Part shown: in pieces, positions 10,575-22,264 of the stretch
How positions within the stretch are numbered: the stretch's first letter is position 1
How the letters are laid out: every line of letters starts with the position of its first letter
NCBI RefSeq assembly: GCF_965261555.1
Contig: NZ_OZ253465.1
Location: 2,547,977-2,611,976 of the forward strand
Length of the DNA: 64,000 bases
Reading direction: 5' to 3'
From: Candidatus Palauibacter sp.
GTDB lineage: Bacteria > Gemmatimonadota > Gemmatimonadetes > Palauibacterales > Palauibacteraceae
Program-made: the position numbers and the translations under genes
Notes under the pieces: generated by a model
What the model was told of the DNA's origin: nothing
Databases searched by the model: none
Seen by the model: only the letters and a program-made list of their open reading frames with translations

Positions 10575-11846
10575 ATGCAACAGACCGCGCGATGTCTCAT
10601 CCTCTCGACCCTGACCCTCGCAGGGTTCGGGTGCCGGGACGCATCCCGGGAATCGGGCCGGCTCGACCCCGGGGCGGATTCCGCGATCAGTTCGACGGTC
10701 GATTCCGCGGGCGTGGAGATCGTCCACATCTCCGATCTGCAGGACCTCGACCTTCCGGAAATGAACAGGCGGTTGCTCTACTCCACCTCGGCGGACGTCG
10801 AGCTCCACCAGGTGGCGGGCGCGGTGTTCCTTCCGGATTCGTCGCTCGCGATCGCGAACGGCGGATCGTCTCAGATCCTCCTCCTCGACTCACAGGGGAA
10901 CGTTCTGGAGCGAAGAGGCCGCGAGGGAGAGGGACCCGGGGAGTATGTCGACATCGCCTGGATCGGGGTCGGCGCGGATGGCGTTCTCATCGTGTTCGAC
11001 GATCGCCTGCGGCGATTCACGTTCCTGGACGCGCAGGGAGGCGTGACCGGGGTGCAGCGCATCGAAGTGACCGAGGCTTTCGTCCCGTTGGCCGGCCTCC
11101 CGAGCGGAGAGTTCATCGCCGTGGTCGAGACGCGCCCCTTCCGCCCTACGGGGTTGCAGCGGGGCCCGCTGTTTCTGGTGGTCGTTGACCGGGCGGGTGC
11201 GGTCGCGGACACGCTGGGCCGGTGGGCCGGCAAGCAGCGCTACGTCACGCCCGACCGGATGATCGCATTCGGTTTCGCCGCCACCGCGCTCTATGCCGGA
11301 CGCGGTCCTCACGCCGCCCTGGCCACAACGGATTCGCTCGACATTACCCTGTACGAAGCATCGGCGCCGCTGACCCGGATCCGCGGCGGCCATTCCCCCC
11401 GCCAGGTCACCTCCCGGGAAGAGGAGGCGTGGACCGAACTCGTTCTCGACGTCTACCCGGAAGCGGTGCGTCCGGCTCAGCGCCGAACGCTGGAGCAGTC
11501 GACCGTCCGGGACACCTATCCCGCCGTCGGGGCGCTGAAGGTGGATGCCGCTGGCACGATATGGATCGGAGGCTACACGGGACTCGACGACGTCGAGCGG
11601 AACTGGACCGTCCTCCGACGCGACGGCACTCCTCTCGGTCGCCTCGGCCTTCCCGTTTATCGTCCCGAGTTGCTGAAGGTCAGGGAGAGCGGCATCACCG
11701 GCTGGGCCCTGGTCGAAATGGAAACGACCATTCCCAGCGCCAGCCACGAGCTGCTCGATGTGACCCCGGATCGCATCGCGGTCCTCCGCACGAGTGAACT
11801 GGGAGAAGAGTTCATCGAGGTGTACGCGATCGGGTTACCGCGGTAG
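10575..11846 (+). CDS. hypothetical lipoprotein (beta-propeller-like)
   Basis: Signal peptide with lipobox LTLAGFGC. No recognisable catalytic motifs. Confidence 0.55.
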   Translation: MQQTARCLILSTLTLAGFGCRDASRESGRLDPGADSAISSTVDSAGVEIVHISDLQDLDLPEMNRRLLYSTSADVELHQVAGAVFLPDSSLAIANGGSSQILLLDSQGNVLERRGREGEGPGEYVDIAWIGVGADGVLIVFDDRLRRFTFLDAQGGVTGVQRIEVTEAFVPLAGLPSGEFIAVVETRPFRPTGLQRGPLFLVVVDRAGAVADTLGRWAGKQRYVTPDRMIAFGFAATALYAGRGPHAALATTDSLDITLYEASAPLTRIRGGHSPRQVTSREEEAWTELVLDVYPEAVRPAQRRTLEQSTVRDTYPAVGALKVDAAGTIWIGGYTGLDDVERNWTVLRRDGTPLGRLGLPVYRPELLKVRESGITGWALVEMETTIPSASHELLDVTPDRIAVLRTSELGEEFIEVYAIGLPR

Positions 11847-11856
11847 CGGAAAGGGA

Positions 11857-13698
11857 TCAGGGCGCTCTGGGCGGGTTGACGCCGGCGCTCCCCGTGGCGA
11901 GCGCGACGACCTCGATGGCGGCCTCGCGCATCGTCACCGCGAGCGTGCGTCCGTCGGGGCTCACGCTCGGTTGGAGCGCGCCGTGCCCGCCGGTCGTCAC
12001 CTGTTCCGTCGCGCCGGTGGCGATATCCACCCGCCACACCTGGAAGGGCCCGGAGGCGTTGTTACGCGAGTAGAAGAGCGACGCGCCGTCGGCGCTCCAC
12101 TCGGGCGCGCTGTACGGCTCGCCATTCACAAAGGAGATGACCGCCCTCGGGGTTCCTCCCCCGGCCGCCACCGTGTAGACGGTGACGCGTCCGTCCTCGA
12201 ACGAGCGCCCGTAGAACGCCAGCCGCTCGCCGTCCGGCGAGAAACGGGCTCCCATGGCGTAGCCCTCGAACCCGTCGAGCGGGACTCGGACAGGGTCGGC
12301 GGCCGCGGACCCCGTCGCGGGATCGACGGCGACCGTGTAGACGGACCCCGGGTTCCCCTCGGACGGCGGGCCGTGGCTGCTGAAGGCGAGCGCCCGCCCG
12401 TCCGGGCTCCAATCCGGCTCGCCGGTGTCCGCGCCGGGTCCGAACCGCGTGAGTCGCGTGGGTCGCTCGCTCCCGTCCACCGGGACGAGCCATATGTCGT
12501 CGCTCTCCTCCAGGTGCCCGTGGAAGGCGAGCCACCGGCCGTCGGGCGACCACGCGGCTCCGTAGTCTTCGTGTTCCTCCGAGAGGAGCACTCGGGGTGC
12601 GCCGGCTGGTGCGCCGTCCGCATCGAGGTCGAGGACGCCCAGGTCGAAGTCGATGGGCATGCGGACGCGCCGCCAGGAGAAGGTGATGAACCCCAGCGCC
12701 TCGCCGGCCGGGTGCCAGGAAGGCAGGAAGGCGCTCGTGGAAGCGGTCGGCATCGCATCGGCCGGTTCCCCGCCGGTCACCGGCACGAGGCCCACCGTGG
12801 TGCGCGTATGGTAGACGCTGAGAGCGACGCGGCCGTCGGCGAGCGGCGTGACCGCGAGAACGTCACGGCCGCCGTGCTCCAGCCGTTCGGCCGGGCTCCC
12901 GTCCAGCGGCACGCGCCACCCGGCAAAGAGCGAGTCGCCGATTCCCGCCGCCGCGAGATGGAGCGCTTCGCCGGTGGGGGACCACTCCACGCGGCGGTCC
13001 CAACTGAGCTGGAGGCCGTCGGCGAGCGTGCGCGTCTCGCCCGTCGCGATCTCCGTCACGGCGAGGTCCGAGCGTCCGCCCGCGGCGCGAAGGTACGCGA
13101 CCGTGCGTCCGTCGGGAGATTGCACGGGCGCAACCCATCCCCCGGCACGGTCGACGATCACGGATGCCGCGCGGCCGGGTCCCGGCGCATACGCGACCCA
13201 CGCGGTATCGGTGCCCGCGTATCGGAGCGCGGTCACGGTCCCGTCGGATCGCAATCGCGGATAGTCGATGCGGGCGTCCCCGGGATCCACGATGCGCGAT
13301 TCCCGGCCGGTCGTCGGGTCCAGCGTCCAGACTCCGTGACGGTCGGACTGGCGATCGACATAAACGATGCGCGAACCGTCGGGCGACCAGGTGACGCGCG
13401 TCCGTCCCCCCAGGGTGCTCGTCATCGCGCGTCCGACCCCGGTCGCCACGTCGTAGACCGTCAGCGATCTCTTGTCCGCGGCATAGTCGGCGAAGACGAC
13501 GCGATCGCCGGCAGGCGACGGAATGCCCGGGTAGGCGTCGTAGAAGTCCGTAGGCACGTGTCGCGCAAGCACGCCGTCCGAGACCTCTTCGACGCGGTCT
13601 TCGCACGCCGCCGCCGAGAGGAGCGGCACTGTCGCAAGAACAAGCCTGACCCTGCCGCCGCACCGTCGATTCGACGGAGACCTCATCATCGTCTTCAT
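11857..13698 (-). CDS. TolB-like periplasmic beta-propeller protein (PD40/WD40-like repeats)
   Basis: 613 aa with repeated SPDG..LAF/WSPDG.. PD40 motifs and lipoprotein signal LLSAAAC. Confidence 0.75.
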   Translation of the reverse strand: MKTMMRSPSNRRCGGRVRLVLATVPLLSAAACEDRVEEVSDGVLARHVPTDFYDAYPGIPSPAGDRVVFADYAADKRSLTVYDVATGVGRAMTSTLGGRTRVTWSPDGSRIVYVDRQSDRHGVWTLDPTTGRESRIVDPGDARIDYPRLRSDGTVTALRYAGTDTAWVAYAPGPGRAASVIVDRAGGWVAPVQSPDGRTVAYLRAAGGRSDLAVTEIATGETRTLADGLQLSWDRRVEWSPTGEALHLAAAGIGDSLFAGWRVPLDGSPAERLEHGGRDVLAVTPLADGRVALSVYHTRTTVGLVPVTGGEPADAMPTASTSAFLPSWHPAGEALGFITFSWRRVRMPIDFDLGVLDLDADGAPAGAPRVLLSEEHEDYGAAWSPDGRWLAFHGHLEESDDIWLVPVDGSERPTRLTRFGPGADTGEPDWSPDGRALAFSSHGPPSEGNPGSVYTVAVDPATGSAAADPVRVPLDGFEGYAMGARFSPDGERLAFYGRSFEDGRVTVYTVAAGGGTPRAVISFVNGEPYSAPEWSADGASLFYSRNNASGPFQVWRVDIATGATEQVTTGGHGALQPSVSPDGRTLAVTMREAAIEVVALATGSAGVNPPRAP

Positions 13699-13765
13699 TG
13701 GGTGAGGGACGATATTTGTTGTGAGTTGCGAGGGTCAACGGACGTCGCAATTGTCACCGCCGACC

Positions 13766-14200
13766 ATGGAAAGCAATTCGACTTCACCTGATGCGATCGA
13801 CCGAACGATCGAGCTGAATGCCTCGCCCGCTCGCGTGTGGGTAGCGCTCGCCGATCCCGATGGGCTGGCCTCGTGGTTCCCCGACCGGGTCGAGGGACTT
13901 GCACCGGAAGAGGGCGCGACGGGCTGGCTCGCGTGGGACAGGCACGGCCGGTACGCGATCGCGGTCGAGTGGATGGAGGCCGGGCGCCGGCTCGTGTGGC
14001 GCTGGGCCCGGAAGCCGGACACCCCGCTCGAAGGCGGTTACAACACGACCGTCGAGTGGACGCTCACCGAACGCGAGGGCGGCGGGACGATCCTGCGCCT
14101 GGTCGAGAGCGGTTTCCGGACCGAGAGCGACCGCCAGGACAACGTCGGCGGCTGGGAGCACGAACTCGGCGAACTCGTCGACCACCTCGCCACAGCCTGA
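13766..14200 (+). CDS. SRPBCC-family protein (AHSA1/START-like)
   Basis: IELNASPARVWVALADPDGLASWFPD..., typical of the activator-of-Hsp90-ATPase/polyketide-cyclase-like fold. Confidence 0.7.
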   Translation: MESNSTSPDAIDRTIELNASPARVWVALADPDGLASWFPDRVEGLAPEEGATGWLAWDRHGRYAIAVEWMEAGRRLVWRWARKPDTPLEGGYNTTVEWTLTEREGGGTILRLVESGFRTESDRQDNVGGWEHELGELVDHLATA

Positions 14201-14218
14201 CCCCGATTCCTCCCTCTC

Positions 14219-15367
14219 CTACGATTTCGGGATGTCCTTGCCGGGATCCACGAAGGGGCGGGGCACGACCGTGGCGTCGCGTTCACCGTCCGGCGTCGTC
14301 ACGCTCAGCCGCGTGCCCATCTCTCCGGAGGCCGCCGGCACCAGGGCGTAGCCGATGTTCCGCCCGAGACGGGGCGAGTGGACGGCGGAAGTCACGAAGC
14401 CGATCTCCTCTCCGTCCCGGCTCACCGGCCAGCGGTCCATGTTCAGGTCGAGCGGGGCGCCCGAGATCTCGATTCCGGCGAGGAGTCGCCGGGGGCCCTC
14501 CTCGGCGATCCGGGCCAGCGCTTCGCGGCCGATGAAGTCGCCCTCCTGGTCGAAGTCGACCTGCCAGCCGAGCCCGACTTCGTACGGGTTCGTGTCCAGC
14601 GTCATGTCGATGCCGTAGTTGAGGATGCCGGCTTCGATGCGGCGGATGTCCGAGGGACCCGTGGGCGAGATGCCCAGGTCGCGTCCCGCCTCCATCACGC
14701 GGTCCCAGAGTTCGACGCCCCGGCTTCCGTCCCTGAGGTAGATCTCGTAGCCGACCTCGCCGCTCCACCCGGTGCGGGTCACGACCACCGGGATGCCGTC
14801 CAGATCCGCCTCCAGGAACCAGTAGTAGCGGAGGTCGAGGACCTCCTCCCCGAAGAGCCGCCGCACGACCTCCTTCGACTTCGGGCCCTGCACCTGCATC
14901 GGCGAGACATCCGGCTCGCAGATCTCGACATCGAGGCCGGCGTTGAGCGCGATCCCCTTCGCGTAGAGCAGCACGTCGCTGTCCGCGAGCGCGAGCCAGA
15001 AGTGGTTCTCACCGAGGCGCAGCAGCACGGGATCGTTCACGATGCCGCCGTCCTCGGCGCCGATGAGGACGTATTTCCCCTGCCCGACCGCGCACTTCGA
15101 CAGGTCCCGGGGCGTGAGCAGGTTCGTGAACTCGAAGGCGTCCGGCCCCGTGATCTCCACCTGCCGCTCGACGCTCACGTCCCACACCGTGACGCCGGTC
15201 AGGAGCTTCTCGTACTCCGCGTGCAGATCGTCGTAGCGGGTCGGGAGGAACATGTGGTTGTAGACCGTATAGCTCCGGCACCCGTCCCGGAGGGTGGCCT
15301 CGAAGTATGGGGAGCGGCGAAGCCGCGCCCCGCGCTGGATCAAGGCCATGTCGAAGGTCTGGGTCAT
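14219..15367 (-). CDS. GcvT-family aminomethyltransferase-like protein (folate-dependent demethylase family)
   Basis: 382 aa with ...VWDVSVERQVEITGPDAFEFTNLL... and GYEIYL blocks, as in glycine-cleavage T protein, DmdA and sarcosine-oxidase-type domains. Confidence 0.75.
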   Translation of the reverse strand: MTQTFDMALIQRGARLRRSPYFEATLRDGCRSYTVYNHMFLPTRYDDLHAEYEKLLTGVTVWDVSVERQVEITGPDAFEFTNLLTPRDLSKCAVGQGKYVLIGAEDGGIVNDPVLLRLGENHFWLALADSDVLLYAKGIALNAGLDVEICEPDVSPMQVQGPKSKEVVRRLFGEEVLDLRYYWFLEADLDGIPVVVTRTGWSGEVGYEIYLRDGSRGVELWDRVMEAGRDLGISPTGPSDIRRIEAGILNYGIDMTLDTNPYEVGLGWQVDFDQEGDFIGREALARIAEEGPRRLLAGIEISGAPLDLNMDRWPVSRDGEEIGFVTSAVHSPRLGRNIGYALVPAASGEMGTRLSVTTPDGERDATVVPRPFVDPGKDIPKS

Positions 15368-15537
15368 GAAGGTTATCCCTCCGGTCTACGGGTCGGGTTG
15401 GTGTCCACAGGGTGGAAATCGGCTGGCCTGCCGGCATCCGGTCAGGCGGTATCGGTGCCGGTGTCGGGGGGTGCGATGCCGAAGACGGAACCCTCCAGTC
15501 GGGCCACCGCCATGCGCGTCCGGGTCAGCTCCGCCCG

Positions 15538-16842
15538 TCAGGTGGGGATGCCGTGCTTCACGGCGCGCGTCATCGCGTCCACGAAGCGGTCGAGTTCCTC
15601 GAGGGTCGTGTAGGTGGACGGCGAGATCCGCAGGCCCGTGAACTCGGCGTGGTTGATGCCGACGGTGAAGATCCGGTGCTTGTTCCACAGCCAGTTGCGG
15701 AGCGCGCTCGTGTCGATCCCCCCCACCTGGACGTTCGCGATCCCGCATGCGAAGCCGGGCTTGAGGCTCGTGTTGAGCCGCACCCGGTCGTGTTCCAGGA
15801 GCTGCTCGGCCCAGTAGTTCCGGAGGTGGACGAGCCGCGCCTCCTTGCGCTCGCCGCCGACCAGCTGGTGGAAGGTGAGCGCCTCACCGATCGCGAGGAA
15901 GTTGGCCTCCGGGTGCGTGCCGATCGCCTCGAACTTCCGGATGTCGTCGTTGCTGCTCTCGGGCGCCGCCTGCAGCGGCCAGATCTCGGGGATCTTCTCC
16001 TTCCTCACGTAGAGGAGGCCCGTGCCGACGGGGGCGTGCAGCCACTTGTGGAGGCTCACCGCGTAGTTGTCGCAGTTGAGCTCGGAGAGGGTAAAGTCAT
16101 GGTGCGCCATCGAATGTGCTCCATCGACGATAACCGGGATGTCGTAGCCGCGCGCCATCTCCACGACCTCGCGCACGGGGAGGATCTGCCCGGTGATGTT
16201 GATCATGTGGCACATGAGAATGAGGCGCGTGCGGTCGGTGATCTGCTCCTCGAACAGCCGTACGATCTCCGCCGGGTCCTCGGCCGGGATCGGGATCTTG
16301 AACTGCTTCATCACGATCCCCTCGCGGCGCTCGCGCTGCTGGAAGGTCGTGATCATGCGCCCGTAGTCCTGCGTCGTCGTCACGACTTCGTCGCCGCGCT
16401 GGAGGTCGTAGCCGTTCTGCAGGATCTGAAGACCCTCGGACGCGTTGCGCGTGATCGCGACCTCCTCGGGGTCCACGTCCCACTGCCGGGCGAGGCGCGC
16501 GCGGACGCCCTCCCGCTGCGGCTCCAGGATCTGCCACCCGTTGTAGACCGGGATCTGGTTCGCGAAGTCGAGGTCCCGCTTCATCGCCTCGAGGACGTGG
16601 GCGGGCGTCGGGCTCACGCCGCCGTTGTTGAGGTTGACGAGGGAGCGGTCGGTCGTGAATGCCTTCTGGATCTCGAGCCAGAACTCCTCGTCGCGCGCGA
16701 TCTCCCCGGGGGAGCCGGGCGTGCGCGACGCCTCCCGGGCCGCGGCGATGGCGGTGTTCCACTTCGTCGGAACCATTGTCATGGCTCCGGCGGCTGCGGC
16801 GGAGCCCCCGAGGCGGGCGAGGAATCGTCGGCGGGTCGGCAT
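15538..16842 (-). CDS. class V aminotransferase-fold PLP enzyme with twin-arginine (Tat) signal
   Basis: N-terminus MPTRRRFLARLGGSAAAAGA (Tat motif). PLP lysine block SLHKWLHAPVGTG. Isopenicillin-N-epimerase/cysteine-desulfurase-like fold. Confidence 0.75.
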   Translation of the reverse strand: MPTRRRFLARLGGSAAAAGAMTMVPTKWNTAIAAAREASRTPGSPGEIARDEEFWLEIQKAFTTDRSLVNLNNGGVSPTPAHVLEAMKRDLDFANQIPVYNGWQILEPQREGVRARLARQWDVDPEEVAITRNASEGLQILQNGYDLQRGDEVVTTTQDYGRMITTFQQRERREGIVMKQFKIPIPAEDPAEIVRLFEEQITDRTRLILMCHMINITGQILPVREVVEMARGYDIPVIVDGAHSMAHHDFTLSELNCDNYAVSLHKWLHAPVGTGLLYVRKEKIPEIWPLQAAPESSNDDIRKFEAIGTHPEANFLAIGEALTFHQLVGGERKEARLVHLRNYWAEQLLEHDRVRLNTSLKPGFACGIANVQVGGIDTSALRNWLWNKHRIFTVGINHAEFTGLRISPSTYTTLEELDRFVDAMTRAVKHGIPT

Positions 16843-16967
16843 GCGGCCTCCTGGCTGGTTCGGCGCGGTCGTCGCCTTTCAATACTGCTGCCAAATAGAC
16901 GGTTTTCGGCGCCGCGAGCAAGTCCGGAACCGCCGGAGCCGGGCTCGCAGACTGCCGGCCCCGCGCG

Positions 16968-17522
16968 TCAGTCCTGTGTCGTGATCATGGCCAGGATCGG
17001 GTCGATCGCCTCCTCGGCCAGTTGTTCGAGTTCGACGGCGGTACGGTTCTGGATAGGGTGCGGGACCCACACGATGCCGGGTTCGAACCCCAGCGAGCGC
17101 GACTGGCTGCGGGCGGCCGCCTCGAACTCCGTCGTGACGACGAAACAGCCGGGGATTCCGCGTTCGTCCAGGTCTCTGAGGTCGTGCAGACCGCACGACG
17201 TGCAGGACCCTCAATCGGCCAGTGCCTGCACGACGACATCGGCCTCCGTGGCGATCCTCTGCAGGATTTCGACGGGCGCCCGCCGCGCGTTGGTCGGCTT
17301 GTCCGTGCGGATCGTCTCGATGCCGAGTGCGTCCAGTCGCGCCTTCACATGGTCGAGGAACTCGTCGCTGCGCAGCTTGCCGATTCCCTGGAGCGCGACA
17401 ACTCGCCCCTCCAGCGACGGCGGAGGCGTGCGCCGGGGCCGCATCTCCGGAGCGAGTTCGGAGGTGGGATCGTGGAGGACAGTGGCCGGCGTTGCCGGGC
17501 TCGCCGCGGTCGAAACGGTCAT
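16968..17522 (-). CDS. UGSC/UxxCxxC-motif selenoprotein (in-frame UGA at 17211..17213 read as selenocysteine)
   Basis: Frame verified base by base. The gene is MTVSTAAS...EADVVVQALAD-[TGA]-GSCTSCGLHDLRDLDERGIPGCFVVTTEFEAAAR...PILAMITTQD-[TGA at 16968]. The ATG (17520..17522) overlaps the stop of the upstream gene (ATGA). The post-UGA half has no Met and is absent from the ORF track. Confidence 0.7.
17181..17199 (-). promoter_or_regulatory. SECIS-like hairpin 11 nt downstream of the UGA
   Basis: The mRNA reads UGA GGGUCCUGCAC GUCGUGC-GGUCU-GCACGAC. This is a perfect 7-bp stem with a 5-nt GGUCU loop starting at nt 12 after UGA, the same spacing as the E. coli fdhF SECIS minihelix. Confidence 0.6.
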
Positions 17523-18970
17523 GTCTCGATCTCTCTCGTGATGGGGTGTGAGTGCTGCCAGGCGCGGCCGCCGGGCCAGCCGGCCAGGATCGCGGAGTAC
17601 AGTCCGGCCGCGCCGCCGGCCCGGGCGAGGAGCAGTCCGCCGGGCGGAAACTTGGGCACGTGGCGGCGCGTCTCCGAGTCCGGCACGCCCTCCGCGAGGC
17701 CGCCGGCGCCGCGGGCCACCTCGCCCAGCGGCCGCGTCGTCGCTTCGATCAGCGCCTCGGTGATGCGCGCCCGGCCCCAGCCCGCCTCCCGGTAGACGGC
17801 GTAGTGCTCCGGCGAGAGGAGGAGCACGGCGTGCGCCCACTCGCAGATCTTCGGGTGGCAGACGGCGAGCAGGCACGCCGCGAGCGACGCTGTGAGTTCC
17901 TCGGGGGTGCGCGAGGCCTGGTCCATGATCCCCTGCACGCCCTCGCCCTGGAACAGCGTGACGGCATCGGTCCCCCGCGGAACGCCGCGTGAGACGGAAA
18001 GCGGCTCCCAATCCTCGTCCGACTCGTCCTCGGCGAAGCAGAAGGTGTACTTGCTGGGCGCGCCGAAGGTGGAACGGTCGATCTCGCCGGGGCGCCCGCC
18101 GCCCACGTTTTGCACGATGAGGTTGAGGGCGCGCCCGATGGTCGCGTTCGCCCGGTTCCCCTGTCCGAGGACGTTGAGCCTCGAGTTCATCCCGATCCGG
18201 CGCGCAATGGGGCCGTTGACGATGATGAGGGGGGCGGTGAAGCAGGTGCTGCACAGGATCCCGTGCAGCGTGAAGTCCGGATCGAGCGCCGCCTCCAGCG
18301 CCGCCAGCAGCACGGGCATGTACTCCGGCTTGCAGCCCGCGAGCACGGCGTTGATCGCCACCTTCTCCACCGTGCATTCCGCATAGTCGGGCGGCACGGC
18401 CCCCACGATCTCGCCAGGAGCCTGGGACGTGCCCGCGAGCATCCGCAGGATCCGCTCCGGGGTCGGCGGGACGACCGGAAGCCCATCCGTCCAGCCGCGA
18501 TCGAAGCATGCCTCCACGTCGTCCGCGTGCGGCTCCAGCGCCACCCGTCGCGCCTCCAGGCCCGTGTCCCCGAAGCGCGCGCGCAGGCGCTCGGCGGCGC
18601 CCGGTGCTACCGACAGGGAACCGCAGCCGGGGCGGAACGCGGCCAGATCCTCCCCCAGGTCGGGGGTCGACGTCAACCGGCGCCACTCGTCGCGGTTCCA
18701 GCCGACGGCGCGCCCCGTCTCCCGTCCGTCCTCGAAGCGCACCAGCGTCGGGACCGTCTCGATGTCGAGGCGGAAAGAGTGTTCGAGTTCCGTGTCGTCG
18801 ATCACGCCAGGGACGGCGGCGGGAAAATCCGGATCGTCCTGGCTGAAGACCGTAAGACCGCAGCCGTCAGCGGACAGCCGTTTCAGCACGGGTTCGACGA
18901 GTTGGCAGGTGGGGCAGTCCCGCTTCACGACGACCGCGAGACCGTCCTCGGGTAACGGAGCGCGTTCCAT
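17519..18970 (-). CDS. hypothetical protein with N-terminal thioredoxin-fold domain (CPTC motif)
   Basis: 483 aa. N-terminal ~110 aa is thioredoxin-like (VVVKRDCPTCQLVEPVLKRL). The remainder is unrecognised but carries several Cys pairs (PGCGS, CSTCF, CHPKIC). Confidence 0.65.
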   Translation of the reverse strand: MERAPLPEDGLAVVVKRDCPTCQLVEPVLKRLSADGCGLTVFSQDDPDFPAAVPGVIDDTELEHSFRLDIETVPTLVRFEDGRETGRAVGWNRDEWRRLTSTPDLGEDLAAFRPGCGSLSVAPGAAERLRARFGDTGLEARRVALEPHADDVEACFDRGWTDGLPVVPPTPERILRMLAGTSQAPGEIVGAVPPDYAECTVEKVAINAVLAGCKPEYMPVLLAALEAALDPDFTLHGILCSTCFTAPLIIVNGPIARRIGMNSRLNVLGQGNRANATIGRALNLIVQNVGGGRPGEIDRSTFGAPSKYTFCFAEDESDEDWEPLSVSRGVPRGTDAVTLFQGEGVQGIMDQASRTPEELTASLAACLLAVCHPKICEWAHAVLLLSPEHYAVYREAGWGRARITEALIEATTRPLGEVARGAGGLAEGVPDSETRRHVPKFPPGGLLLARAGGAAGLYSAILAGWPGGRAWQHSHPITREIET

Positions 18971-19136
18971 GTCCCAACCGTAACGCTCGGATCCCGTCCG
19001 TCAAAGCCGCCACCCGCGCCGTTGACCCCCCGCGGGACTGAACGGAGATTTACGACCGCGTGTTATCAAAGGTTGTGAAGGGACGGGCAGGGATGTGTTT
19101 CGCCGTGATGGACCCACTCGGAAGGATGTACCTCTT

Positions 19137-20851
19137 ATGAACCGAACTGCACTCGCGCGCCGGCTGGCGGGCGGGGTAGTCCCGGGGCTGCTCCTCGCAT
19201 CGCTGTCCGGCCTCGCCTCTCCGGCGTCTGCCGCCGCGCAGTACATGCCGAGCCAGAGCCCGGTGCCTCCCCCGTTCTTCGCGCTCCAGAACGCGCGCAT
19301 CGTGACCGGCACGGGCGCCGTCATCGAGGACGGCACCGTCGTCATCGCCAACGGCCTCATCGAAGCCGTAGGGGCCGACGTCGACATCCCCGGTGAGGCG
19401 TGGCTGATCGACGCCAGCGGCCTCACCGTCTATCCCGGCCTCTTCGACGGCCTGTCGCAGGTCGCACTGGGGACACCGGGAGGGGACGGGCCCGCCGGTG
19501 CCGGCGCCGGAGGCAACCCCTTCCTCGCCCTCGCGCAGCAGGCGAACCAGCCGCGCACCGTGGGGCCGGAGGATCGCCCCGCGACGAACTCCTGGTTCAA
19601 CGCCGCGGACATGCTGGACGCCGACGCCGACGCGATCGAGACCTGGCGCAGCGGCGGGTTCACGAACGCGCTCGTGGCGCCCGATGACGGGATCGTGACG
19701 GGGCAGGGCGTCGTGGTGAACCTCGCGGGCAGCGAGCAGGAGATGGTCGTGAAGTCGCCTGCCGCGCTCCGCGTGACGATGAGCGGCGCCGGCGGATTCC
19801 GGAGTTACCCCGGCTCGCTGATGGGCGTGATCGCGTACATCCGGCAGCTCTATCTCGACGCGGACCACGCCGGGCAGTACGAGGCGCGCTATACGGCGAA
19901 CCCGGGCGGTCAGCCGCGTCCGACGTACGATCGCGCGCTCGGCCCGGTGCAGGATGCGATCGCGGGCGGCTGGCCCACGGTGATGCCGGCGAACGAGGTG
20001 CGGCAGATCCGGCGGGCGATCAAGCTCGGGCAGGACACCGGCGCGCGGCCGGTCCTGCAGGGTGCACACGAGGCGTACGGACTGGCCGACGAGATCGCGG
20101 CCGCGGGCGTTCCGGTGCTCGTCAACGTGGACTGGCCCGAGCGGAACCGCGATGCGGATCCGGAGGCCGAGGAGTCGCTCTCGTCGCTGAAGCGCCGCGC
20201 CTACGCGCCGACGACCCCGGCCCGGCTCGAGGAAGCCGGGGCCGAGTGGGCCTTCTACAGCGGCTCGGCGAACAACCCCCGCGCGATGATGGACAAGGTG
20301 CGGACGGCGATCGAGAACGGACTCTCGGAGGAGGCGGCGCTGGAGGCGCTCACTGCCGCGCCCGCCCGCATCTACGGCGTGGACGCGCTCCTCGGCTCCG
20401 TCGAGGTGGGGAAGATCGCGAACCTCGTCGTCACGGACGGCCCGCTGTTCGATGAGGGCACCGATGTTCGGATGGTGTTCGTCGACGGCCACAGGTTCGA
20501 GGAGGAGGCGCCCGAGCCGCGGCCGACGGAGCCCCCGGCGGTCGACATGAACGGCACCTGGCTTCTCTCCCTGAACAACGATTCGCAGGAGGCGACGGCC
20601 GAACTCGAGGTTTCCGAGGACGGCACGATCTCCGGCGTGATCCAGGGCGAGCGCGGCGAGCAGCAGATCACCGACGGCTGGGTGAGCGGCAACGAGTTCA
20701 GCATCACCGCCTCGGCCACGATGGGACCGGGCATGGAAGTCGAGATCGTCTATACCGGCACGGTCGAGGGCGACGCGATCGAGGGGAACGCCTCCTTCGG
20801 CGGCATGCGCAACATGGACTTCACGGGCACGAGGCCCGGAGGAGGTGTCCG

Positions 20852-20855
<4 letters not shown>
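19137..20855 (+). CDS. amidohydrolase-family protein (secreted) with C-terminal extra domain
   Basis: Signal peptide, then an amidohydrolase N-terminal pattern (IVTGTGAVIEDGTVVIANGLIEAVG...IDASGLTVYPGLFD). ATG 19137 verified. Confidence 0.75.

Positions 20856-22260
<1,405 letters not shown>

Positions 22261-22264
<4 letters not shown>

Follow-up and report, generated by a model that had tools for sequence, protein, structure and literature searches.

A stretch of 64,000 nucleotides (nt) from Candidatus Palauibacter sp., about 70% GC, carries four consecutive genes and raises the question of which of them belong together and what they do. This whole stretch is here called the window, and coordinates refer to it unless another locus is named. 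The four genes, A to D, encode a protein with a thioredoxin (Trx) fold, a selenoprotein, a class V pyridoxal phosphate (PLP) enzyme and a GcvT-family aminomethyltransferase. A preliminary description of the DNA had put them forward as a candidate module with a logic reminiscent of glycine/sarcosine/betaine reductase. Here we show that the conserved core consists of two genes, A and B. Our preferred reading, which we judge modestly probable, is that A and B work together as a tightly packed operon of two genes that carries out a Trx to selenocysteine (Sec)/cysteine (Cys) reduction, and that the four genes are not one unit. The locus is laid out as follows.

14219..15367, minus strand: gene D, 382 amino acids (aa), a DmdA-like aminomethyltransferase of the GcvT family
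15368..15537: gap of 170 nt between C and D
15538..16842, minus strand: gene C, 434 aa, a PvdN-like class V PLP enzyme with a twin-arginine translocation (Tat) signal
16843..16967: gap of 125 nt between B and C
16968..17522 (stop codon included), minus strand: gene B, a UGSC-family selenoprotein of 184 aa by read-through of UGA
17519..17522, minus strand: ATGA overlap read from the sequence, stop codon TGA of A at 17519-17521 and ATG of B at 17520-17522
17519..18970, minus strand: gene A, 483 aa, N-terminal Trx-fold domain, PGCGS linker and C-terminal domain of about 330 aa

The arrangement reported earlier, with four consecutive minus-strand genes, the ATGA overlap and the gaps of 125 and 170 nt, is exact in the sequence, and the assignments made at that level (a Trx-fold CPTC protein, an in-frame UGA in gene B, a class V aminotransferase-fold enzyme with a Tat signal, a GcvT-family enzyme) all hold.

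Gene neighbourhoods were compared in two samples of loci, whose members are numbered with the prefix L. On the side of A, a one-genome-per-species scan returned at least 599 stretches with A relatives; 80 loci were kept and two more came from protein look-ups, giving 82. On the side of B, the DNA pattern D-U-GSCTSC..HD alone yielded 120 metagenomic loci, 99 of them with at least 700 nt of upstream sequence. A UGSC gene was present in all 82 genomic loci retrieved by A and lay immediately downstream of A in 81. Starting from the other gene, an A homologue was found directly upstream of UGSC in 92 of the 99 metagenomic loci. The earlier suggestion that the Trx-fold protein and the selenoprotein form a coupled pair is well borne out by these counts. 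The A-B loci come from at least nine phyla, the hosts on the A side being found among Gemmatimonadota, Alpha-, Beta- and Gammaproteobacteria, Nitrospirales, Acidobacteriota, Chloroflexota, Hydrogenedentota, Acidimicrobiales and Eremiobacterota. Conservation of the neighbourhood of the selenoprotein family, proposed as a check in the preliminary description, was thus found for A (UGSC in 82 of 82 loci) but failed for C and D, which are missing from 76 of the 82.

The two genes are also closely spaced. From the stop codon of A to the first aligned residue of B the distance is at most 60 nt in 140 of 173 related loci; this residue was taken as the end point since the first start codon is misleading in high-GC DNA. 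The ATGA overlap in the window represents tight packing and is consistent with translational coupling. Genes for Cys-form UGSC proteins are likewise preceded, in database gene calls, by a Pfam-less gene of 479-482 aa with a 4-nt overlap. Neighbour clustering revealed no third gene family recurring in more than 11 of the 82 loci. The UGSC/Unknown_1 fusion described previously (PMC2398784) was seen neither in the 173 paired loci nor among the top 120 UGSC matches. In the metagenomic locus L156, ABC (ATP-binding cassette)-transporter permeases lie upstream of UGSC instead of A.

SelA/SelB genes, the one noteworthy case of recurrent neighbours, stand beside A-B in 12 of the 82 loci, and a thirteenth shows a partial SelB match. 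In L001, L049, L051-L053, L055, L057, L066, L072, L074, L078 and L081, selA and selB (plus selD in L001) adjoin the pair. The adjacency suggests that A-B travels with the Sec machinery, UGSC perhaps being the principal selenoprotein of such genomes. Within the 64-kb window, no SelA, SelB, SelC or SelD gene was found. Other neighbours are confined to subsets of loci. A divergent regulator of the GntR/FCD family tends to be near Cys-form loci (L204, 3795..4466; L208, 3692..4405; L022; L041) and was not seen adjacent to Sec-form UGSC loci; these regulators hint at control by a small metabolite. In one lineage (L205-L207, 3907..4410), a gene for MsrB (SelR) is located directly upstream of A-B and is co-directional with it.

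Two features of gene A are central to its role in the pair.

18905..18916, minus strand: CPTC (CxxC) redox motif, C19 and C22, invariant in 29 aligned homologues
17522..18523, minus strand: C-terminal domain of A, about residues 150-483, defined by alignment, with the motifs RGWTDGLPVVPPT, AGC(K/R)PEY, LGQGNRANATIGRAL, FCFAEDES and SPEH

Gene A belongs to no Pfam family and is named by NCBI only as 'thioredoxin family protein'. Its N-terminal domain has a Trx fold in which the CxxC motif opens a helix, as in members of the Trx family, and the linker carries an invariant PGCGS. The domain of about 330 aa that follows had no match in Pfam or NCBIfam when 29 full-length members were searched at E up to 5; apart from Trx families, these members gave only isolated chance matches of single proteins. 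A profile search of the A family against PDB sequences likewise returned only weak thioredoxin matches, the large domain being without a relative in the PDB, and in a comparison of the A model with PDB structures no analogue of this domain ranked above the thioredoxin matches. A relatives form more than 8000 clusters at 90% identity. Between phyla, A is still 63-70% identical, which speaks for an enzyme under constraint and against a loose scaffold. In the structure model, with an overall predicted local distance difference test (pLDDT) score of 74, the loops of low confidence (residues 134-166, 265-271 and 291-308) hold several of its most conserved motifs; RGWTDGLPVVPPT and GQGNRANATIGRA are among the conserved loops. 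Possibly, these are interface or active-site segments that would become ordered only in a complex.

A subfamily of A without the Trx domain, of about 340-380 aa, was encountered in the metagenomic loci L086, L089, L113, L124, L176 and L200, still followed by a Sec-UGSC gene. Accordingly, the uncharacterised domain, and not the Trx domain, is the universal partner of UGSC. Several of these shorter proteins end in a C-x(4-5)-C tail, e.g. GPVCVDGACQL, and such a C-terminal Cys tail may stand in for the absent Trx domain. The subfamily also informs on candidate active-site residues. Cys213 is the sole conserved cysteine of A present in all variants read. A pyruvoyl site at Cys116 of the invariant PGCGS was ruled out, as the segment is absent from the Trx-less subfamily, and Cys311 was rejected as a universal cysteine, since L124 and L200 have Ala instead.

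Gene B carries the following features.

17211..17213, minus strand: UGA Sec codon, residue 104 of B; in 81 homologous loci this position is taken by TGA (77) or TGC (4)
17193..17213, minus strand: U-GS-C-TS-C (UxxCxxC) redox motif with U104, C107 and C110, conserved in 81 loci
17170..17210, minus strand: Sec insertion sequence (SECIS)-like hairpin with upper stem UCGUGC/GCACGA and apical loop GGUCU

The in-frame TGA at 17211-17213 reads ...ALAD-U-GSC-TSC..., as had been proposed. Across the 81 homologous loci the similarity of the B proteins is uninterrupted at the UGA position, and the surrounding motif D-[U/C]-GSC-[TV]-[ST]-C-xx-H is kept. Since TGA and TGC occupy the same aligned position and similarity runs through it, the TGA of B is, on comparative sequence grounds, not a chance event and Sec is judged genuine. 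The UxxCxxC motif is followed shortly by an invariant His-Asp. In the protein search, full-length Cys-form UGSC proteins were numerous; their motif is SDCGSCTSCSTHD (loci such as L204, L208, L022 and L041).

The hairpin lies 13-31 nt 3' of the UGA and is kept in 44 diverse sequences, in which 83% of the cells overall and 95.5% of those in the upper helix are paired, as compared to 21-43% pairing of the whole structure in slid controls. GC, GU and AU pairs are exchanged for one another, and five pairs are altered on both sides. The structure has no match in Rfam, and the z-score of its single-sequence fold is not significant in this GC-rich DNA. With a hairpin 3' of the UGA and a G/U apical loop, the predicted structure fits a bacterial SECIS element.

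Family membership of B is clear. It scores 111.8 bits against Pfam PF24696 (gathering threshold 25) and is thus a member of the UGSC family, narrowly missing the NCBIfam model NF041046 (115.4 bits, cutoff 125); this cutoff is also missed by P0179, a clear Cys-form member (119.9 bits). Motif, in-frame UGA, length of about 180 aa and Pfam score are those of the family (PF24696/NF041046), and nothing about gene B itself deviates, the copy in the window being an ordinary member. The structure model of B, built on a Cys-form homologue (pLDDT 74), shows an alpha/beta sandwich of three layers whose sheet is parallel; residue 95 of this homologue, the place of Sec/Cys, falls between strand 87-91 and helix 100-111. 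In structure comparison it resembles P-loop and Rossmann-like proteins only generically, and the B-family profile found no match among PDB sequences. The Trx-like fold suggested for UGSC in 2008 is not supported by the model, which is predicted to be Rossmann-like. The UGSC-containing protein (Zhang and Gladyshev) has been catalogued since 2007-2008 as a family of unknown function (PMC1976440, PMC2398784) and is very abundant in surface-water metagenomes (PMC2398784).

As to what such a protein might do, the most informative likeness is that to selenoprotein B of the glycine, sarcosine, betaine and proline reductases. The models used were TIGR01917 (GrdB), TIGR01918 (which also covers proline reductase) and NF040794 and NF040795 (GrdF/GrdH group). 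TIGR01917 was matched by 13 of 17 UGSC members and then by 105 of 108 further ones (best E 9.7e-5), and the GrdF, GrdH and TIGR01918 models by nearly as many; the next unrelated NCBIfam model was matched by only 12. The matched stretch of about 65 residues aligns UGSC positions around 84-161 with positions around 334-399 of the GrdB model and spans the Sec position. Gene B itself reaches 15.5 bits against the GrdB family cutoff of 602 and does not qualify as a GrdB. Taken together, this is good sequence-based evidence that B is remotely related to selenoprotein B or at least shares its catalytic module. The reductase-like logic noticed in the preliminary description therefore stands in part: the match to GrdB, GrdF and GrdH is weak and real, and falls far below the family cutoffs.

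Similarities and differences to these systems extend beyond the Sec region. B, of about 180 aa, is smaller than the GrdB, GrdF and GrdH models, of about 431-435 positions; PrdB has 241 aa. No adjacent pyruvoyl subunit of the GrdE/PrdA proprotein type was found, partner A being without similarity to them. Grd and Prd were characterised in anaerobic Stickland fermenters, which the sampled hosts of A-B are not. Families like GrdA, GrdC/D and PrdC are not recurrent near the 82 A-B loci, the neighbours of which were not scanned with Grd/Prd-specific models. GrdB is reported to use a UxxCxxC motif (PMC13188914), the same type as the U-GS-C-TS-C of B, and a Sec motif of this type is shared with GrdF, GrdH and PrdB. 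These proteins also work with a non-selenoprotein subunit encoded next to them and with electrons of thiol or Trx type (PMC11229817, PMC13188914). Proline reductase binds its substrate on the pyruvoyl group of PrdA, where it is attacked by the Sec of PrdB (PMC11229817).

We propose that A and B form a complex in which the large domain of A binds the substrate and docks B. The selenolate of B would attack the substrate held by this domain, and a neighbouring Cys of the UxxCxxC motif would resolve the adduct to a selenenylsulfide. The Trx domain of A would then re-reduce the selenenylsulfide, a step for which Trx-less A proteins could use their C-terminal Cys pair or a free thioredoxin, and the cellular thioredoxin reductase with NADPH (reduced nicotinamide adenine dinucleotide phosphate) would recharge the Trx domain. 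Overall, a substrate in the cytoplasm would be reduced by two electrons drawn from thiols; the direction of electron flow is part of the proposal.

Several observations weigh against this proposal. The scores linking UGSC to GrdB, about 15-17 bits against a cutoff of 602, are driven in part by the Cys-rich motif. With NCBIfam and Pfam models, none of the 29 A members could be linked to GrdE or PrdA, the pyruvoyl subunits. In 7 of the 99 metagenomic loci (L091, L102, L106, L116, L156, L161 and L165) UGSC is without an adjacent A, so that B can occur apart from A in some genomes. The neighbours of A-B differ from genome to genome and point to no substrate. Finally, the structure models of A and B are both of moderate confidence (pLDDT 74).

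A more specific version of the preferred reading can be framed from the PrdB/PrdA pair. The analogy is attractive, yet no relationship of A to PrdA or GrdE can be detected. In this version, bacteria other than Stickland fermenters would have in A-B a widespread, hitherto unrecognised equivalent of the selenoprotein B reductases of Stickland type: the large domain of A would activate the substrate, and Sec would cleave a bond of the C-N or C-S type with electrons from the Trx domain. The site on A might be a covalent carbonyl at the universally conserved cysteine of AGC(K/R)PEY, and the substrate a common small molecule, e.g. an osmolyte or an amine. We regard this specific version as quite unlikely; if true, a selenoprotein family that ranks among the most abundant in aquatic environments would gain a function.

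Genes C and D have a different distribution. They adjoin A-B only in relatives at the level of Palauibacter, namely in the window, L003, L004 and L008. In L203, C alone accompanies A-B, and in L005 it is about 4.3 kb away. Both are absent from 76 of the 82 genomic loci and all 120 metagenomic loci, including other Gemmatimonadota/Longimicrobiales (L006, L007, L009, L010, L012 and L064). The junction between C and D is itself unstable. In L008 it is interrupted by a gene for a 494-aa Fic-domain protein (11790..13274, plus strand) with the HPFADGNGR motif (HPFADGNGRVAR). L203, from a Candidatus Palauibacter sp. (Gemmatimonadota), is the closest relative, its A being 96% identical, and no GcvT-family or DmdA-like gene is present among the called genes of this locus. 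There (13517..21452), C is followed by a RibD_C/dihydrofolate reductase (DHFR)-like gene and then by genes for an integrase of phage type, a relaxase and a NikA/MobC-like protein, which look like an integrated mobile element. The upstream side of L203 differs as well: here a GerE regulator is encoded, and a protein of 2018 aa containing immunoglobulin (Ig)-like repeat domains.

Neither C nor D is unusual as an enzyme, and each has close relatives that have been characterised. Gene C scores 134.9 bits against Aminotran_5, and its N-terminus MPTRRRFLARLGG passes the cutoff of the TIGR01409 Tat-signal model (17.7 versus 16.7 bits, on residues 3-23), from which a periplasmic location is presumed. 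The best relative of C in the PDB is PvdN (5I90, 127 bits over residues 34-424), a periplasmic, Tat-exported enzyme of pyoverdine tailoring. Both have a Tat signal, and the likeness provides a precedent for class V PLP enzymes being exported in folded form by the Tat route; however, C is not an orthologue (142.3 bits against the PvdN equivalog NF051467, cutoff 650), and no pyoverdine genes were seen nearby. Gene D has the domains GCV_T and GCV_T_C. It narrowly misses the equivalog NF009133 for DmdA, the dimethylsulfoniopropionate (DMSP) demethylase (399.4 bits, cutoff 410), and matches over its full length, with 276 bits, 3TFH, which is annotated as a GcvT-like aminomethyltransferase and which we take to be the Pelagibacter DmdA structure. 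With a score below the curated cutoff, the substrate of D could be DMSP or a related methylated compound.

The distribution of C and D decides against the four genes acting as one co-functional module of one-carbon and amine-reducing enzymes, which we consider highly improbable. The co-directional order, the short gaps, the absence of a predicted terminator and the A-B-C order in the window, L003, L004, L008 and L203 (with C not far off in L005) speak for it, as does the activity of the D family on methylated amines and sulfonium compounds, which recalls betaine/sarcosine chemistry. Against this, C and D are missing from nearly all loci, their junction is broken by the Fic gene in L008, L203 has no GcvT-family gene in the locus, and the products would be separated, since C carries a Tat signal and A and B, by reading of their N-termini, have no signal peptide and are presumably cytoplasmic. 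C and D are thus independent genes that happen to follow A-B in Candidatus Palauibacter and lie outside the conserved unit.

Readings that leave the pair intact and change its task have to be weighed as well. A general antioxidant or repair system (a Sec peroxidase, a disulfide or sulfoxide reductase, a protein repair enzyme), in place of a reductase for a specific metabolite, would suit the Trx-fold CxxC joined to Sec/Cys redox chemistry, the stand-alone nature of the pair without fixed metabolic neighbours, and the MsrB gene upstream of A-B in L205-L207. It would also suit hosts such as Reyranella, Xanthobacter and Marinobacter, which are aerobes and were among those sampled, and the abundance of the family in surface waters (PMC2398784). 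We nevertheless think it rather unlikely, given that the B model has neither a Trx nor a peroxiredoxin (Prx) fold and selenoprotein B models were matched instead, that nothing comparable to the large, extremely conserved additional domain of A is known from peroxidases or Msr enzymes, and that the GntR/FCD regulators of Cys-type loci hint at metabolite control. The handling of selenium or of a soft metal or metalloid, for instance by delivery of selenide to SelD or by binding or reduction of mercury, arsenic or tellurium through UxxCxxC, we hold very unlikely. A Sec and two Cys within seven residues followed by an invariant His-Asp would make a good soft-metal site, and sel genes adjoin the pair in 12 genomes, with the partial SelB in a thirteenth. 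However, sel genes commonly adjoin the main selenoprotein gene of a genome, and this adjacency hence needs no functional link; about 85% of the loci are without a sel gene nearby, the Cys-form members have no Sec machinery near them, and no mer, ars or other resistance family appeared among the annotated recurrent neighbour clusters, most clusters being without annotation.

The statement that this is not a described system has to be divided. The selenoprotein belongs to UGSC, catalogued in 2007-2008 (PMC1976440, PMC2398784) and present in Pfam and NCBIfam. In the searchable literature, we found no description of its near-obligate association with one particular partner domain for which no model exists, of the optional fusion of this partner to thioredoxin, or of the consistent link of UGSC to the catalytic region of selenoprotein B. 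A UGSC fold predicted to be Rossmann-like rather than Trx-like would be a further addition not found in that literature. Experiments on the function of UGSC come within reach through its one near-constant, uncharacterised partner, through the thioredoxin domain that this partner usually brings with it, and through the likeness of UGSC to the Sec-bearing catalytic part of the B proteins of glycine and proline reductases. In genome annotation, the PLP and GcvT genes downstream should be kept separate from the A-B system. A DMSP-type demethylase such as D in a Candidatus Palauibacter genome may be ecologically interesting by itself.

The surroundings of the four genes complete the description of the locus. 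A scan for promoters and terminators over positions 13900-19300 gave nothing, a result that, like the lack of a sigma-70 consensus, is uninformative for a Gemmatimonadota genome of 70% GC. Rfam and transfer RNA scans of the window gave no match. From the gene layout, the promoter region of A-B is presumed to lie in the following interval.

18971..19094, no strand assigned: divergent intergenic region 5' of A, presumed A-B promoter region

Beyond this region, two tandem genes of the amidohydrolase family (19095..22264, plus strand) run divergently from gene A. At the other end, a 613-aa PD40/TolB-like beta-propeller protein is encoded downstream of gene D (11857..13698, minus strand), and an AHSA1/SRPBCC gene (13721..14200, plus strand) is convergent with D.

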